In this document: positions 6,749 through 64,000 of the stretch, piece after piece
Numbering within the stretch: position 1 is the first letter of the stretch
Layout: every line of letters begins with the position of its first letter
IMG/VR virus record: IMGVR_UViG_3300021387_000688
Direction: 5' to 3' (one strand)
Length of the DNA: 64,000 nt
DNA from: a virus
Taxonomy: Duplodnaviria; Caudoviricetes
Notes under the pieces: model-generated
Told to the model about the DNA's origin: nothing
Seen by the model: the letters and a program-made list of their open reading frames with translations, nothing else
The model's database searches: none
Position numbers and translations under genes: made by a program

Positions 6749-7675
6749 ATGCCAACAAATATTTCAGTATCAAAAAAGAAATGTTTCGAGGGATGTAAAC
6801 TTCAGTTTAAGTATCAATATATTGATCATATTAAACCAGTAGAAGATGTTACACCTGACGTTACACAGAAAGGTCTGGTAATGCACCAGACATTCGAACA
6901 TCTGCTTCAGTTTGAAAATTATGAAGGGGATGTAGCAAAATTACCTTATCGCCAGGCGTCTACGGAAGACATTATGAAGATCTTCCAGAAAGCAGTAGAA
7001 GAAAATCACCTAACTGCAGAAGCCGCTAAGAAGTATAAACTTAAGAAAGGTATTAAAAGATGGTTATCGTTTAAGCACGATTATATGGATAAGAGAGGAC
7101 ATATCTTTTATGCAGAAAAGAAGTATGAAGAGTACTTGTTTGGAGAAACAAAAACAACAGCTATTCTCGACTTGGTAGAAGATAACGGGGACGGAACTTA
7201 CAACATCTATGACTATAAGACCCCTCAGAAAGTTAACTTGAAGTTGTACGAAGAGCAGTTGATGACTTATGCATATATGATGGCCGTAGTTAAAGGAATT
7301 ATTCCTCTCAACTCAGAAGATTATGATAAGGTTGCAGAACATTTTAAGCTTTATGTATTCTTCCCATTGTTAGATGCAGACCATGAAGATTATGGTCCAA
7401 GTCTTAAGCAAGTAAAGTTTACAGGTGCAAAAGTTAAAAACACAATTGAGCATTTGAAAGAAGTTTGTTCACAGATTGATGCATTTGACTTTACAAAACC
7501 TGCAGAAGCTTTGATGCCTCCAAAGGTTGAGTTTACTTGTAACTGGTGTAGCTTCTGCGGGGCGAAACCAAATCCTGAAATTGGATTTGAAGGTTGCCCA
7601 ATAACTTCTTTTGCAGGATTCTTACAAAAAACGGAATTCAAAAAGGAAGAGTATAAAAAAGAAGAAAAGAAATAA
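6749..7675 (+). CDS. PD-(D/E)XK Cas4/RecB-like exonuclease
   Basis: ILDLV...IYDYKT...QLMTYA motifs; N-terminal Cys plus C-terminal CNWCSFC...C cluster. Confidence 0.85.
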   Translation: MPTNISVSKKKCFEGCKLQFKYQYIDHIKPVEDVTPDVTQKGLVMHQTFEHLLQFENYEGDVAKLPYRQASTEDIMKIFQKAVEENHLTAEAAKKYKLKKGIKRWLSFKHDYMDKRGHIFYAEKKYEEYLFGETKTTAILDLVEDNGDGTYNIYDYKTPQKVNLKLYEEQLMTYAYMMAVVKGIIPLNSEDYDKVAEHFKLYVFFPLLDADHEDYGPSLKQVKFTGAKVKNTIEHLKEVCSQIDAFDFTKPAEALMPPKVEFTCNWCSFCGAKPNPEIGFEGCPITSFAGFLQKTEFKKEEYKKEEKK

Positions 7676-7677
7676 TT

Positions 7678-7703
7678 AAAAGGCTCCTTACGGAGCCTTT
7701 TTT
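7678..7703. terminator. Bidirectional terminator
   Basis: AAAAGGCTCC-TTAC-GGAGCCTTTT between convergent genes. Confidence 0.8.
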
Positions 7704-7706
7704 ACT

Positions 7707-10058
7707 TTATTGTAAAATTGTTGCAGTTATATTGTTGTAATACATTACTGTATCCCAATCAGAAGTTACTGTAAAGTCTGCAGGTTCAATTGAGAAAGAA
7801 GCGTTACAGGTTCTATAATCAATTGCAGATTGCAAACTTGCATAAGCTTTAGACCTTATGGTTTCCCAACCCGTGGATTTCATATTTCCTTTATAACCTA
7901 ACAATGCAACTACTTCTTCTGCAGGAATGAATAAGTAAGCTTCACAACCCTGAGATGTAGGATTGAAGTAGTAGTAAGGGGTTGTAAATAATCCAAATGA
8001 ACCTTTCAAGTTAGAAGAGAAGTCTTGCAAATCAGCTCTGGTGAAAGTGTGCTTTTCTTTTAAAGTTTCTGCCAATGTATACCTGTTACTAGAAGATGTT
8101 GCTCCCCATACCTTATACATCTGCGTACTACCCATATTGGATTTTACAGAGTCTCCTGGCAATGCAGTCTTATCATTACTAACATCGTCTGTAATTACAT
8201 AAGTAACTTTATTACCTGCAATTGACAAATTGTATACACCTACTACTTGGTTACCATCTTTGCTGTTTTTACAGCATAAACCATCTTTACCAGTTACATC
8301 CAATTTCAATTTAGGGAATTCGAATTTGAATCCGAAATAATCTTTATCCCCGATTTCTATAGATAACAACTCTGTAGAGTTTACTGTTAATAAACTTGTA
8401 TTCCAAATAGATGCAATATTGTCACTAAACTGTAAACTGCGTTTAATCAATTCAGATTGATTATAAGCATCAATTGTATTAGTATTTGGTTTACCTACTT
8501 CTGAATAAAGATGTGCGGCCAAATCAGATTCAAACCTTTCTGGAGAAATAATAGAGTTGTGCAACTCTACTTCTATTGCAGAATCGATTTCTACAATGTT
8601 TGGACTTACATATTTAATAATTTTGTTAGACAATACCTTATCGTTAATTACCAAATTAGAAATCTTATTGAAAAGAGAAATCTCAGTAGGTGTCAAAGGA
8701 TTCAAAGCTGTTGATAATCCTGTTACTCCGATTACGTTTCTATACATTGCTACATCATTTAACATTGTCTTTTCATAGAATGTTTTAATAATAGTTTTGA
8801 TAAGAGGAATAGGAGAAACCAAATTCAAGTTATCATTAAGCTCTGAAATTGTGTGCAGGATTTTATAGTTTTTAGAATAAGCAGTTTCTGCATTGGCTTT
8901 AAATTCTGCCAACGTTTCCAAATCTTTACCACCTATAATAGGCCATACATTTTGACAACCTATAGCGAATGGAATGTTATTTGAACTGAATTCTGGAATT
9001 GTAGGATTTTCAAAATCTACTGTTTTTGGAATAGTAATAGAATATTTGAAAGAATACAAATCATTGATGTTACCTGCTTCACCCCTTGTCTCCAAATAAT
9101 GTAAAGTAATCTTTGCACCATCAGGAGGAATAGCACCGTTTACGCCATCTCCGAATTTGATTTCGGTTCCAGATAAGTCATCTGTAATGTTTATTTCAAA
9201 TACTTTATCTGTTGCAGTAGCTACACCTAAGTGTTGAATTTCTTCCCAATGTTCGTTATCCCCTTCTACTTCAACCCAGCAGAATTGAGAAGTATAATAA
9301 CTGTCTGCTGCTTCAATATCTACAGTACCTAACATAAAAGATTGGGCTGCAGTATTATCAGAATTTCCTAAGTAAGTAGTTTTTTGAACACCTTGTACAA
9401 TTGGTACTACAAGATATTTATATCCTTCCCAACCACCGGAAGCTCTAAAGGAATTATATAAAGAAGCTTTGTTGTAAATACGAGACCATTTTTGTTCCCA
9501 AGTTTTAATAGTACAGTGTTTAGCACAAACAAATTCTGTACCATTATTTGCAGTAAAGATAGCTCCTACAGGAACCGAATATTTGGTAGTAGGAATCCAA
9601 GGTACTAAAGCAGACTTAAATGTATTTGCATCGTCTACTAAAGAATCATCAAGGTTTATAAGTTCTCCATCATCATAGTTACTTTCTGTATCAATGTTTA
9701 CAATTGATTTACCGATATTAGAGAATCTTGTATTACCTTCCAAGTCAGAATGGCTTACAATAATAGTTCCTACAGCGCTGTGTTTTCTGTTTAGTTTTTT
9801 AGAAACCAACTTAGCCATATGCTTAGTTGATGGGAAGTTTCTACTAGTATCCCATTTTAATTCCTGAAGTAAATATTCTCCGTACCTGGCAATCTCAGCA
9901 TTAGATTCTGCATGAGTTTCAATAAGTTGGTGAACGGCACCACCTACTTGTACGTTCTTCCATTTTGATTTCTTTTGTAAAACGGCTAATTCCCTTTCTG
10001 TAATTGCCTCTGGATCAAATCGTTTAATTTTGGGGCCTCCAAATATCTTATTTTTCAA
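7707..10058 (-). CDS. Baseplate wedge subunit (T4 gp6-like); probable true start ATT at 10028
   Basis: IKFGDGVNGAIPPDGAKITLHYLETRGEAGN and GGKDLETLAEFK motifs typical of gp6/baseplate J-like proteins. Confidence 0.8.
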   Translation of the reverse strand: MKNKIFGGPKIKRFDPEAITERELAVLQKKSKWKNVQVGGAVHQLIETHAESNAEIARYGEYLLQELKWDTSRNFPSTKHMAKLVSKKLNRKHSAVGTIIVSHSDLEGNTRFSNIGKSIVNIDTESNYDDGELINLDDSLVDDANTFKSALVPWIPTTKYSVPVGAIFTANNGTEFVCAKHCTIKTWEQKWSRIYNKASLYNSFRASGGWEGYKYLVVPIVQGVQKTTYLGNSDNTAAQSFMLGTVDIEAADSYYTSQFCWVEVEGDNEHWEEIQHLGVATATDKVFEINITDDLSGTEIKFGDGVNGAIPPDGAKITLHYLETRGEAGNINDLYSFKYSITIPKTVDFENPTIPEFSSNNIPFAIGCQNVWPIIGGKDLETLAEFKANAETAYSKNYKILHTISELNDNLNLVSPIPLIKTIIKTFYEKTMLNDVAMYRNVIGVTGLSTALNPLTPTEISLFNKISNLVINDKVLSNKIIKYVSPNIVEIDSAIEVELHNSIISPERFESDLAAHLYSEVGKPNTNTIDAYNQSELIKRSLQFSDNIASIWNTSLLTVNSTELLSIEIGDKDYFGFKFEFPKLKLDVTGKDGLCCKNSKDGNQVVGVYNLSIAGNKVTYVITDDVSNDKTALPGDSVKSNMGSTQMYKVWGATSSSNRYTLAETLKEKHTFTRADLQDFSSNLKGSFGLFTTPYYYFNPTSQGCEAYLFIPAEEVVALLGYKGNMKSTGWETIRSKAYASLQSAIDYRTCNASFSIEPADFTVTSDWDTVMYYNNITATILQ

Positions 10059-60217: not shown

Positions 60218-60295
60218 AAATTAAAAGCCATTTAGGATACTCCTTCTATATTGTTCAACAAGATGCAGCACAAGCTGCGAAAAGGAGAAAAATAA

Positions 60296-62422
60296 ATGGC
60301 TTTTAGTTTGAACAAAAAAGCGAACCAAGCCGTTTCATCAGAATCAGTATGGAGAGTAGACCATATTGTTGGAAACGAGTTTGTAACCGTCGTTCTCGAT
60401 TTACCTATTCGAGAAATGTCTAGTCTTGATAAAGAAATCCTAAAATATCTAGAAAGTATTTTATCTAAAGCAGGAATTGCTTCTTATGTAATTACTTCTG
60501 CGCTTTCTAAATATCCTAACGAAAAAGAGCTTAAAAAAGGTCTTACAGATTATTACATCAATCACAATTCGGGTTGGTTTGAACAGATTGTTAAACCTGC
60601 AAGAGAAAAAGGAATGACGGCAGATGTTATTGTAGCATTCGGTCCAGCCTTATATCAAATTACAAAAACAGCAACAGACTTCACAGTAGATGATTTAATC
60701 TATCCTGCATTTGAAAATTATGTTTATGTAGGACACGGATATGTAGGAGATTATGATGCATTTATATTCCCGCAGTATCCAATTCAGGAAGTTTTCGTTC
60801 CAGGACTTCAAGATGGAGTTGAACAAGTAGAACTTGGTTGTTGGAAAATGAATTTCATGGTTTCTGTATTTAAGAAAATTGCAGCTCGTAAATATCAGTT
60901 ACCGGACGACATGGGTCCAGTTGAATTAAGAGAGATTGGGGAGAATTACGATACAGATAAAGAAGGTGCAGTAAAAGAAACTGAAGAGTTTTTGAAAACA
61001 CATTTCAATGAAGATGTATGCGCATTCGACTTGGAAACATCTGGTTTCAATGCATGGAAATGTAAGATTAGATGTATTACACTTTCATTTGATGGTAACG
61101 TAGGTTATTATTTGGAATGGAAGATTTTCAAAGAAAATCCTTATTTAATTGATTTACTTTCTGAAATGATGTTAACTGCTAAGCATCGTGTAACAGTTAA
61201 TGGAAAGTTCGATATTAAGTTCCTTTGGGTTAATGGCTTAAGTTTGGATGTAAATGTAAACGAAGATGCAATGACATTGAGCCATGTATTATGTTCTGGA
61301 AGACATAAAGGTTTGAAAACGAATGCATTCTTCTGGACCCCATATGGTGGTTACGATCACAAACTTGATGAGTATCGTGATAACTTGAAAAAGAAAGGAA
61401 TTAAGGACCCATCATTCTATGATATTCCAAAAATAATTCTTAGACCATATGCGACTATGGATGCTATCATAACAGTTCGTATTTGGAGAGCAGGTCTTAA
61501 ACGTATTCAGAAATTCGATTTTGAATATCCTACAGAATATCCAATCGAGTATACAGGCGGACATGCATATGGTGCTTATGAATGGTACCAGAACGTTATG
61601 CAGATTTATCCAATCATTTGTAGAATGGAATATGATGGCATGTATGTAGATGAAGAAATCATCGAAATGCATAGAAACATTTTCAGAAGAAAGATTGATG
61701 AAGCTCGTAAAGAGTTGAGTAAGATTTTTGGAACACCTTATGATTTCAAATATGGTTCAGCTGCAGCTTTAGGAAGACTTTTGGAAGAAAAAGGTTGGCC
61801 ATGTCATGGTAGAGCCAAAGATGGTTCATATGAAACATCGGATGATTGTTTCGTAGAATGGACAAGAGATGGTATGCCAGGAGTTAAATGGCTTAAGAAG
61901 TTCCGTGTAGCAAATACATGTTTGAGATCTTATCTTGGAGTAACTGAAAAGACAGTAGATCAGAAAAGAGGAACAATTAAAGTTGAACAAACTGGTTGGC
62001 CTCAGTATTGGGTAAAACATCCAGATGGAAGTACTCGTATTCATTGTAACTTTACAGTATGTGGAACAGAAACTTTCCGTATGATTTCTCGTGAACCAAA
62101 CTTGCAGAATGTGCCAACTCATTCACAGGAAGGTTCTATTACAAAGATGTCATTTACAGTTCCTCCTGCAGCCGCTGCAACTATTACAGATGAAAATGGA
62201 AAGAAGTGGTGGATTACAGAGTTAGGAATTATTAATACAGAACGTGGTTATGTAGCAATGAAGGCTTTGACAGAAGACGATACTATTGTAGATATCGGAG
62301 AAGAAACTACTTTGGAATTTGATGAATGGATGGCTAAAGGAATTAAGCCAATTGGAATGGAAACAATGTTAGGTAAACACAATCAAATTCTTGAAGGAAA
62401 GTTTGTATTACAGGAGGAATAA
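60296..62422 (+). CDS. polA: Family A DNA polymerase piece 1: UDG-like domain, 3'-5' exonuclease, thumb, then a half-Hint-like tail
   Basis: DVIVAFG; FDLETSG, NGKFD, YATMDA; RIHCNF..CGTETFRMISREPNLQNVP; ends before motif A. Confidence 0.9.
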   Translation: MAFSLNKKANQAVSSESVWRVDHIVGNEFVTVVLDLPIREMSSLDKEILKYLESILSKAGIASYVITSALSKYPNEKELKKGLTDYYINHNSGWFEQIVKPAREKGMTADVIVAFGPALYQITKTATDFTVDDLIYPAFENYVYVGHGYVGDYDAFIFPQYPIQEVFVPGLQDGVEQVELGCWKMNFMVSVFKKIAARKYQLPDDMGPVELREIGENYDTDKEGAVKETEEFLKTHFNEDVCAFDLETSGFNAWKCKIRCITLSFDGNVGYYLEWKIFKENPYLIDLLSEMMLTAKHRVTVNGKFDIKFLWVNGLSLDVNVNEDAMTLSHVLCSGRHKGLKTNAFFWTPYGGYDHKLDEYRDNLKKKGIKDPSFYDIPKIILRPYATMDAIITVRIWRAGLKRIQKFDFEYPTEYPIEYTGGHAYGAYEWYQNVMQIYPIICRMEYDGMYVDEEIIEMHRNIFRRKIDEARKELSKIFGTPYDFKYGSAAALGRLLEEKGWPCHGRAKDGSYETSDDCFVEWTRDGMPGVKWLKKFRVANTCLRSYLGVTEKTVDQKRGTIKVEQTGWPQYWVKHPDGSTRIHCNFTVCGTETFRMISREPNLQNVPTHSQEGSITKMSFTVPPAAAATITDENGKKWWITELGIINTERGYVAMKALTEDDTIVDIGEETTLEFDEWMAKGIKPIGMETMLGKHNQILEGKFVLQEE

Positions 62423-62425
62423 AAG

Positions 62426-63388
62426 ATGTTAAAGATTACTAAAAGATCTGCTACAATAGATGATTTTTTGAAAATGAAAAAGAAAGAGCCATTTGCAACA
62501 TGGCGACAGACATCTAAGCTTGAAAACTTCGGTTTGATGTTCGGTGCACAGTATTCAACATTCGCCCACATTCTTCAGACAGCAGAACCACCTTTTACAA
62601 TTGAAGATTGTAAAAACTATATCAAACTTGCACATGCAGAAGATGTTTATAATGAAATGTTGATGAAGGCTCAGAAAGGAAGACACCGTCTTTATGAAAT
62701 GAGACCTAATGTAGAATGTTGGTATTATGCAACAGCAAAAGTAATGCGTGAAGCATTCTTGAATGGATATAGTGGATTGAAAGAACGTATTGAACGTGAA
62801 CATAAGTTTGCTATTAAACATTACTATACAAGAAACTGGTATGGTTCTGTAAGATGGTACCCTGAGTTAGCTTATATGAATATTGATCCAATTGAGAAAA
62901 CATTGAAGGGTGCAGATAAAAAGTATTTTGCATATATCTTCTCTCATTTAATGAACAACGCCGCAAACGGTCCTGTACAGAGTGGAGAGACGGTATTTAT
63001 TTACAATGGTTGGATTCATGCAAATAAAAAGATGAAGGAATGGGATTTAAGATCTCAGATTTGTAATACAATTCATGACTCTTTGGATGCATATTTGTGG
63101 AAGCCAGAAAAAGAATTAATGAAGGCTTTGATTAATGCAAGTGTACATGATAAGATTCGTTATCCTCATGAAAATGTATTCCACTTCATGGAACCTGAAA
63201 TCTCTGACATTAGAGATTATGAACATATTACAGGTTATAAAGAAGGGGAGTTTACAGGAGATGAAAAGATCTTAGGACACTTCTATAAACATGGTGAAGA
63301 AGAGAAAGCAGCCCCAATTGCAGATGCTCTTAAAGCTTATAATGAAACTTGGGGAACCAATTGGGAATGGACATTGCCATTAATTTAA
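62426..63388 (+). CDS. polA: Family A DNA polymerase piece 3: motifs B and C
   Basis: RQTSKLENFGLMFG (B), AANGPVQS, TIHDSL (C); own SD GGAGG. Confidence 0.9.
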   Translation: MLKITKRSATIDDFLKMKKKEPFATWRQTSKLENFGLMFGAQYSTFAHILQTAEPPFTIEDCKNYIKLAHAEDVYNEMLMKAQKGRHRLYEMRPNVECWYYATAKVMREAFLNGYSGLKERIEREHKFAIKHYYTRNWYGSVRWYPELAYMNIDPIEKTLKGADKKYFAYIFSHLMNNAANGPVQSGETVFIYNGWIHANKKMKEWDLRSQICNTIHDSLDAYLWKPEKELMKALINASVHDKIRYPHENVFHFMEPEISDIRDYEHITGYKEGEFTGDEKILGHFYKHGEEEKAAPIADALKAYNETWGTNWEWTLPLI

Positions 63389-63398
63389 GGAGAATAAT

Positions 63399-63785
63399 AT
63401 GAGTTGTAAAATTGAAATAGATCCATTTAATAAAAAAGCAGGTAAGTTATGTTATTTGTTAATGACTCAGGATGCTGCGTCATTGGAGGCTCGTGTATGC
63501 ACAAGTGATACTGTTCTTAATAAGAATGGTATTGATAAAGTTTTGTTCTCGGTATATGATCCAGTACATGGAAATAACGACTTACATAGTACTACAAGTT
63601 TCGCTACATTCGGTTCATCTGTAAACTTACAGATTAATGAAATAGTAGACGATAACGGAAAAACATGGTTGTGTTTGGATGACCAGTCTATTGTAATTAA
63701 AAGAGATGGCCAGCAGATCACGGTTTTAGGAAAAGAATTAAAAGAAACAGATGAAATTGTTGGTTATGTAGAGGATGTAGCTTAA
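63399..63785 (+). CDS. polA: Family A DNA polymerase piece 2: motif A, then a half-Hint-like tail
   Basis: LMTQDAASLEARV (A) and DLHSTTS; own SD AAGGAG. Confidence 0.85.
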   Translation: MSCKIEIDPFNKKAGKLCYLLMTQDAASLEARVCTSDTVLNKNGIDKVLFSVYDPVHGNNDLHSTTSFATFGSSVNLQINEIVDDNGKTWLCLDDQSIVIKRDGQQITVLGKELKETDEIVGYVEDVA

Positions 63786-64000
63786 AAATTAAATCCGTAA
63801 GGAGTCATTCTTTTAGCTTGTTGCTTTTTCACTTGGTTGAACGCTTTTAAAGTTTGACTAAGTGTAGGCACAACATTATATTCTATCTCATTTGTAAATT
63901 CAATTGGTTTACATTTTGTAGGACTAACATAAGTTATGTGACCATCTTTAAGGTAAGCCAACAACATGGAACAATTTATGTTAGGACAAATTGAAGGCAA
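63782..64000 (-). CDS. 3' end of a hypothetical protein entering from outside the window
   Basis: Open frame to the window edge; convergent with polymerase piece 2. Confidence 0.45.
   Translation of the reverse strand: MPSICPNINCSMLLAYLKDGHITYVSPTKCKPIEFTNEIEYNVVPTLSQTLKAFNQVKKQQAKRMTPYGFNF

Follow-up and report, generated by a model that had tools for sequence, protein, structure and literature searches.

A family A DNA polymerase encoded by three phage genes in scrambled order

DNA polymerases of family A (PolA) are normally single chains in which the NLQN segment is followed by motifs A, B, and C, and in which the catalytic aspartates of motifs A and C share one palm sheet. We analyzed a 64,000-nucleotide stretch of the virus record IMGVR_UViG_3300021387_000688 (Duplodnaviria; Caudoviricetes), termed the window here, in which the parts of such a polymerase lie on three neighbouring open reading frames (ORFs) and out of the usual order. 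All coordinates are positions in the window. The locus raises the question of whether a polymerase encoded in scrambled pieces can still be one working enzyme. Our reading is that the products of the three genes make up one family A DNA polymerase with a proofreading exonuclease, and that this enzyme would work as three chains joined non-covalently. Judging from sequence comparisons and a structural model, we give this reading a probability of about 0.78.

Three genes in the order front, back, middle

The polymerase block consists of ORF1 (60296..62422, plus strand; 708 residues; piece 1), ORF2 (62426..63388, plus strand; 320 residues; piece BC), and ORF3 (63399..63785, plus strand; 128 residues; piece A), exactly where a first-pass annotation of the sequence had placed them. 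The order of the parts was established on the unsplit relative L059 (853 residues), which, like L019 (865 residues), is an ordinary single-chain PolA with the same N-terminal domain. The three pieces tiled L059 without gap or overlap: ORF1 matched residues 10–558, the ORF3 family profile 558–611 (hhalign E = 3.4e-5), and ORF2 611–806. Pairwise BLAST of ORF3 against the unsplit relatives gave nothing significant, and a profile was required to place it. Because the ORF3 profile filled the exact gap in L059 between the ORF1 and ORF2 matches, the 1-3-2 order proposed by the first-pass annotation was confirmed, and the polymerase parts are encoded front, back, middle. In place of the family A trait of a single polypeptide with motifs in the order A, B, C, the locus has three ORFs that carry the exonuclease and thumb, motifs B and C, and motif A, respectively.

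The ORFs are separated by spacers of 3 nucleotides (ORF1/ORF2) and 10 nucleotides (ORF2/ORF3). Since the order is scrambled and the spacers are this short, a frameshift and cis-splicing are excluded, as the first-pass annotation had argued from the order, and group I/II introns are disfavoured for the same reasons. Each ORF also has the strong Shine-Dalgarno sequence of its own that had been ascribed to it, located 7–9 nucleotides upstream of the ATG. By direct reading these are AAGGAG for ORF1 (60282..60287, plus strand), AGGAGG for ORF2 within the final ORF1 codons (62412..62417, plus strand), and AAGGAG for ORF3, overlapping the ORF2 stop codon (63387..63392, plus strand).

The domain content of the three products was consistent with one polymerase, and the motifs were found in the ORFs to which the first-pass annotation had assigned them. 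The Pfam family DNA_pol_A (PF00476) matched ORF1 at profile positions 5–149 (44.8 bits) and ORF2 at 235–358 (34.4 bits; cut-off 34.3), and ORF3 had no Pfam match; the PHROGs assignments agreed with Pfam. ORF1 comprises an N-terminal domain (residues 1 to ~225), a 3'-5' exonuclease (residues ~228–398), the thumb with the first palm strand (NLQNVP...FTVPP, to residue 624), and a tail. The exonuclease family PF01612 was matched with E = 9e-5 and 22.8 bits, slightly below the 23.6-bit cut-off, and the motifs Exo I–III (FDLETSG, NGKFDIKF, YATMDA) were invariant. The N-terminal domain (~225 residues; 60296-60970), which had no Pfam match, is kept throughout the family, including the unsplit relatives of 853 and 865 residues.

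The family A consensus is D-x-S-x-x-E-x-R for motif A, R-x3-K-x3-F-x3-Y-G on the O-helix for motif B, and H-D-E for motif C. ORF2 starts with an 8-residue head (MLKITKRS), followed by the O-helix with motif B (residues 27–40, nucleotides 62504-62545), motif C as IHDS (residues 216–219, nucleotides 63071-63082), and a C-terminal extension. Its family profile aligned to Bst Pol I at motif B (RRQAKAVNFG) and motif C (QVHDEL). Motif B of ORF2 reads RQTSKLENFGLMFG, in which R27, K31, F35, and G40 are invariant and Phe stands in place of Tyr. ORF3 has a head (MSCKIEID...), a palm strand leading to motif A (D25 to R32, nucleotides 63471-63494), DLHSTT (nucleotides 63579-63596), and a tail. Its motif A, QDAASLEAR within LLMTQDAASLEAR, has an Asp that is nearly invariant among 22 sequences, and the ORF3 profile covers the motif A segment of L059. 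Across families down to 35–50% identity, the catalytic D of motif A, R/K/F of motif B, and HD of motif C were invariant or nearly so. The lineage has HDS instead of HDE in motif C, with His and Asp invariant and Ser as the third residue in the split family. As the unsplit relatives also carry HDA or HDS, this residue reads as a lineage trait and not as a sign of decay.

The arrangement was found repeatedly. The identical ORF2 protein is carried by 22 contigs, and we examined the 10 listed places from JGI, Logan, and ENA assemblies, which follow several record-naming styles. The 1-BC-A block was present in nine of these ten, including a 305-kb contig, and the tenth (L081) had the same block with an inserted homing endonuclease gene (HEG) cassette. 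A single 25-kb contig from a different sample was collinear with the entire stretch. Misassembly is contradicted by the shared order in nine of the ten listed places, which come from independent samples. Searches of IMG/VR with a single protein or with an alignment gave no close relative, and among the published phages of INPHARED there were only distant PolA matches for ORF1 (at most 28.5% identity) and none for ORF3.

All three genes are under strong purifying selection. The ratio of nonsynonymous to synonymous substitution rates (dN/dS), computed per ORF against near-identical variants at dS of 0.06–0.30, was 0.025–0.034 for ORF1, 0.00–0.008 for ORF2, and 0.00–0.027 for ORF3. Values of 0.00–0.03 on every gene speak against decay of the ORFs, an outcome that the first-pass annotation had considered. 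Contigs from metatranscriptome libraries of two studies span the ORF2/ORF3 junction, one of them also the ORF1/ORF2 junction, hinting that the polymerase block is transcribed. The cover in RNA libraries X19 and X20 was patchy, and its gaps are not interpretable.

Downstream of the block, a convergent minus-strand gene (63782-64000; 123 residues in L003) terminates 4 nucleotides within the end of ORF3, and this neighbour was kept in all window-type assemblies.

A gene in pieces among relatives

Relatives were found by searches with ORF1, ORF2, and ORF3, and their loci were then retrieved. These showed that the arrangement in the window, which the first-pass annotation had treated by itself, is one state of a fluid, HEG-associated "gene in pieces" family, and that the same site is uninterrupted in most relatives. 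The commonest form was a fusion of pieces 1 and A in canonical order, 830–856 residues long and with the same C-terminus as ORF3 (L001, L042-45, L048-51, L055). In this form the 320-residue B/C gene is remote, beside topoisomerase and helicase genes (B/C at L004-6). Since the B/C gene sits at a remote locus, its product must already work in trans in most relatives. An IS605 OrfB / Cas12f-like TnpB gene lies ~8 kb from the remote B/C gene (L004:16912-16963), and these phages carry other mobile elements.

In a second form, pieces 1 and A are separated by a gene of the DUF7487 family (L002, L046, L047, L068). One of these, L068 (CAMPAL010000001.1), is a 66-kb contig binned in a metagenome-assembled genome labelled uncultured Treponema sp., which may be a hint of the host or a binning artefact. 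The third form is the 1-BC-A order of the window group, and L072 (75% identity) shows 1-BC up to the end of its contig. A fourth, in L073-75, has the order DUF7487, BC, DUF7487, A without a nearby piece 1, and L071 has piece 1 followed by DUF7487 with no piece A nearby.

The remaining forms are fusions that involve piece BC. In P0169, A and BC are fused in canonical order. In P0196, P0227 (76% identity), and P0228 (60% identity), BC and A are fused the other way round into a single circularly permuted chain, which was found in three clusters at 60–100% identity. A piece 1 that is 29% identical to ORF1 adjoins the fused BC+A gene in L086 and overlaps its start, and L087 has the fused BC+A gene alone, without an adjoining piece 1. 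In relatives of 29–39% identity, the order of B/C before A was kept or fused into one chain. P0198, taken at first as a second BC+A fusion, was rejected as a truncated 1+A fusion; matches to a supposed repeat of the ORF3 tail were likewise rejected in P0183 (low-complexity sequence) and P0226 (a YadA-type adhesin).

As to neighbouring genes, L086:3646-6925 and 7411-8490 hold an NrdD anaerobic ribonucleotide reductase with activase and a protein with a GGDEF / Cas10-palm-like domain, adjoining piece 1 and BC+A. A GGDEF gene is also found near the fused BC+A gene of L087.

In the tree of piece 1, the window set grouped with L071 and L072 (support 96/100), L002 was sister to L001, and L046/47/68 were sister to L049/50, indicating that the 1-HEG-A form arose at least two times from 1+A ancestors. 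The break point in L002 is the same as in the window, directly after ...IETM(W/L), and the breaks of L046, L047, and L068 fall in the same interval, between the matches to piece 1 and piece A. A search for the same split points in related phages, suggested by the first-pass annotation, was therefore successful, with an identical break in L002 and the split variants described above.

The DUF7487 proteins matched PHROG "homing endonuclease" families (E down to 1e-18); one of them, searched against PDB sequences, had no match. DUF7487 genes stand at junctions in L002, L046, L047, L068, L071, L073-75, and L081, and there is no HEG at either junction of the window. In L081, from a near-identical phage, the boundaries of the cassette could be read. 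It was inserted after about codon 12 of ORF2 and left a 19-codon stub, MLKITKRSATIDAYSEDDN, joined to the old start, while supplying a new Shine-Dalgarno sequence and a synonymously recoded ORF2 start. The insert (L081:1976-4000) carries a 597-residue minus-strand gene with DUF7487 and N6/N4 DNA methylase domains inside the 5' end of ORF2. Invading HEG cassettes are described to behave as in this insertion (PMC2677866).

A three-chain model and the junction tails

Following another suggestion of the first-pass annotation, ORF1 residues 400–708, ORF2, and ORF3 were modelled together as three chains, each with its own alignment. The complex had an ipSAE of 0.89, compared to 0.47 for the best of three controls. 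Among 80 solved complexes, 58 attained this mark, as did 2 of 110 mismatched pairs, counts that are rough here given the own alignments and the three chains. The model runs shared at least 98% of contacts, with partner pLDDT of at least 91. The modelled ORF3 strand 18–22, which leads into Asp25, pairs with ORF2 221–226 (just past HDS) and with ORF1 620–625 (FTVPP), a predicted pairing that is the canonical PolA palm sheet. ORF3 1–27 is listed in the modelled interface with the ORF1 tail, the closest pairs joining ORF3 11–15 to ORF1 622–625. The ORF3 tail is placed with the ORF2 head region (residues 1–23), and the C-terminal extension of ORF2 touches ORF3. The proposal of the first-pass annotation, an active site built from three polypeptides, is supported indirectly by this model, together with the purifying selection, the remote B/C gene, the old B/C-A order, and the recurrence of the order in independent assemblies.

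Compared to the unsplit relatives, the pieces carry additional sequence at the junctions. ORF1 has an extra tail of ~85 residues past FTVPP (residues 625–708; 62168..62419, plus strand), and ORF3 has an extra 54-residue tail past DLHSTTSFATFGSS (residues 75–128; 63621..63782, plus strand). Such insertions are absent at both junctions of L059 and L019, and the ORF1 tail is also absent in P0219 and P0192. The downstream heads, MSCKIEID... in ORF3 and MLKITKRS in ORF2, are short and likewise extra, with the family consensus MxKI.

A comparison by hhalign showed the tails to be homologous (probability 87.6%, E = 3.5e-6), and several searches pointed to inteins. The best PDB match of the ORF3 tail profile was the Aes123 PolB1 split intein 9hth (E = 0.0058, over block B to N4). 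The ORF1 tail profile in turn had its best match in the split intein NrdJ-1 (E = 0.12), an alignment that sets NRGYVRADELTDDDELV against ERGYVAMKALTEDDTIV. Structures were predicted with AlphaFold for the ORF1 tail (pLDDT 68) and for the junction region, uninterrupted, of a 1+A fusion (pLDDT 75), and for each of them two aligners ranked inteins first. When 48,161 chains were searched exhaustively by fold, inteins took all of the first seven rows by Z, at Z of at most 4.0 and Foldseek E of at least 0.13. The protein-language-model neighbours of the ORF1 tail were intein clusters, with scores of 0.76–0.82, under the reliable level. A Pfam search that admitted E values as high as 1 gave neither a Hint nor an intein domain. 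We consider the tails of ORF1 and ORF3 to be, quite probably, intein-derived half-Hint modules. In P0188 (198 residues), a stand-alone motif A piece, a further tail-like insert, …VRQNGKIVSIPAVLARATDGL…, stands between motif A and DMHS; with it, one polymerase would hold three inserts of this module type.

From the sequences, protein splicing by these tails is not expected. None of the splicing residues is present: the tails begin with Ala or Val in place of Cys or Ser, and TELG or DDQS occupies the block B position, with no His there. The heads of the downstream pieces, ~8–15 residues long, are too short for C-inteins, whose length is ~35 residues or more, and lack a terminal HN followed by Cys/Ser/Thr. 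Furthermore, the 1+A, A+BC, and BC+A fusions all retain the tail within their chains as normal sequence that shows no splice motifs.

In the explanation that we favour, three separate chains would be translated from one tightly packed gene block. The ORF3 strand bearing the motif A Asp would lie with the last ORF1 palm strand on one side and the ORF2 hairpin of motif C on the other, rebuilding a normal active site. Each junction would probably be clasped by a non-splicing split-intein remnant, in which a half-Hint tail ending the upstream piece (the C-termini of ORF1 and ORF3) is combined with a short MxKI... strand that opens the downstream piece (the N-termini of ORF3 and ORF2). Because assembly would happen at the protein level, gene order would be irrelevant. 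HEG traffic at the junctions could then fracture, relocate, and re-fuse the pieces, with 1-BC-A as one outcome. The data above show the genes, their order and conservation, the variety of arrangements among relatives, and the link with HEGs; that the chains bind and polymerise, and that the tails are clasps derived from inteins, is what we infer.

The history that we find most likely starts with an unsplit PolA in which two conserved sites, ahead of motif A and ahead of the O-helix, each took up an insertion of intein type. The inserts would then have lost splicing and retained affinity for their partners, and HEGs would have repeatedly cut and fractured the gene at both sites. If the pieces find each other as proteins, relocation, scrambling, and re-fusion would be tolerated. 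Possible routes of B/C to its position between pieces 1 and A are HEG-assisted transfer, or duplication followed by loss. The proposal as a whole, in which a pair of dead, paralogous remnants of split inteins serve as non-covalent clasps and order-independent assembly let HEGs scramble, scatter, and re-fuse the pieces into a permuted BC+A PolA, is tentative, and we hold it at slightly less than even odds. If true, it would describe a natural route from intein invasion to a modular, permutable replicase.

Competing explanations and known split enzymes

Several points weigh against a three-chain polymerase with intein-derived clasps. Its activity could be unusual, since motif C as HDS lacks the second carboxylate and motif B has F where most PolA have Y. 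The performance of the three-chain model may reflect the likeness of the combined pieces to solved single-chain PolA, which is likeness and not binding. None of the single measures of the intein signal is strong, and the tails could be an unrelated small beta module. The RNA-library contigs may be carried-over DNA. Finally, what was read of the genome is the 64-kb window only, so another replicative polymerase elsewhere is conceivable.

The alternative that survives best accepts the active three-chain PolA but sees it as an accessory enzyme for repair or the lagging strand, distinct from the main replicase. Some jumbo phages have more than one polymerase (PMC7824862), and the present data cover the window and not the whole genome. 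However, the B/C gene of relatives sits among core replication genes (topoisomerase, helicase), and we regard an accessory role as unlikely.

Less probable still is that the pieces are relics, or were separately repurposed, in a genome replicated by another polymerase. Such a polymerase could be encoded in the genome beyond the window, outside this search, and HDS in motif C could be taken as a sign of it. This explanation has to face the low dN/dS on all three genes, the invariance of the catalytic residues down to 35–50% identity, and the co-occurrence of the pieces in many lineages. Moreover, HDS or HDA is present in the unsplit relatives too, and the exonuclease motifs are intact. We therefore consider it a marginal explanation.

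In a third alternative, active split inteins would ligate pieces 1, A, and BC into one canonical chain by protein trans-splicing, undoing the scrambled order. The tails resemble phage split inteins, phage "fractured genes" with HEGs are known (PMC2677866), and trans-splicing would likewise be independent of gene order. But every readable determinant of splicing is missing (the nucleophile, the block B His, the length of the C-intein, and HN followed by Cys/Ser/Thr), the tail stays in the chain of all three kinds of fusion, and Pfam gave no Hint or intein domain. Covalent ligation thus appears very improbable.

An assembly artefact, in which a chimeric contig or a collapsed repeat of this metagenomic source produced the 1-3-2 order, is effectively refuted by the nine of ten listed places with the same order (the tenth differing only by its HEG cassette), the collinear 25-kb contig from another sample, the 1-BC junction shared with L072, and the fused BC+A ORF in three clusters.

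A non-covalent assembly of three chains, as we propose, can be compared to several known systems. In the account given by PMC2677866, the Aeh1 phage nrdA is split by an HNH gene and the PolB gp43 is split in T4-like phages; in both, a free-standing HEG enters an essential replication gene, and the products of the two resulting ORFs reassemble non-covalently. Similarly, relatives of the window carry DUF7487 genes exactly at the junctions, and the L081 cassette gives the downstream piece a new start. Unlike these enzymes, which by that account consist of two pieces in the original order, the polymerase here has three scrambled pieces, some of them relocated or re-fused in permuted form among relatives, and the junctions of the window itself have no HEG.

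"Fractured genes" combine split inteins with a free-standing HEG, as for the gp41-1, NrdJ-1, and IMPDH-1 inteins (Dassa et al. 2009, PMC2677866), and by definition their parts remain in the original order and locus with the HEG between them (PMC2677866). The family described here shares with them the phage setting, HEGs between gene parts, and putative Hint-like modules at the broken ends, and the best PDB matches of the tails, although weak, are inteins of this kind (NrdJ-1, gp41-1, Aes123 PolB1). In contrast, the polymerase here lacks the splicing residues and most of the C-intein, so no ligation is expected. The window, with three scrambled parts and no HEG, falls outside the definition, and the relatives L002, L046, L047, and L068 do have the fractured-gene layout as 1-HEG-A.

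The B-family DNA polymerase of PhiKZ consists of two subunits that form a stable 1:1 complex by biochemistry and cryo-EM (PMC13648687). Like the polymerase proposed here, whose assembly is predicted from genes and a model, it is a jumbo-phage replicative polymerase made from separate genes. It differs in being of family B and in having two pieces in canonical order, and the abstract reports no intein-like clasps or HEG link. Cyanobacterial DnaE, as described in PMC2677866, is split at distant loci by a split intein. Both polymerases would come from separate loci and be linked through halves of a Hint domain (putative here). In DnaE, by that description, an active intein ligates the halves covalently, whereas the remnants here have no catalytic residues.

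The unsplit relatives L059 and L019 share with the split polymerase the N-terminal domain, the exonuclease, NxQQxP, motifs A and B, and motif C as HD(A/S), at 27–30% identity. Unlike it, they consist of one chain with the parts in canonical order and carry no insert at the two junctions.

In the literature searched, there was no report of a three-piece or out-of-order PolA with a palm built from three chains, of a natural single-chain permuted PolA, or of intein remnants retained as non-splicing docking modules or clasps. Split polymerases and HEG-fractured genes are already known; what had no counterpart in that literature are the three scrambled PolA pieces, the permuted BC+A chain, and the candidate non-splicing clasps. 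The many natural variants, fused, split, relocated, and permuted, make the question directly approachable by co-expression. If confirmed, the system would supply polymerase engineering with small, mutually specific clasps that do not splice and with places to split the enzyme (motif A and the O-helix), and it would be a natural test of how far the PolA fold tolerates changes in chain topology. It would also show selfish elements turning an essential enzyme into interchangeable parts.

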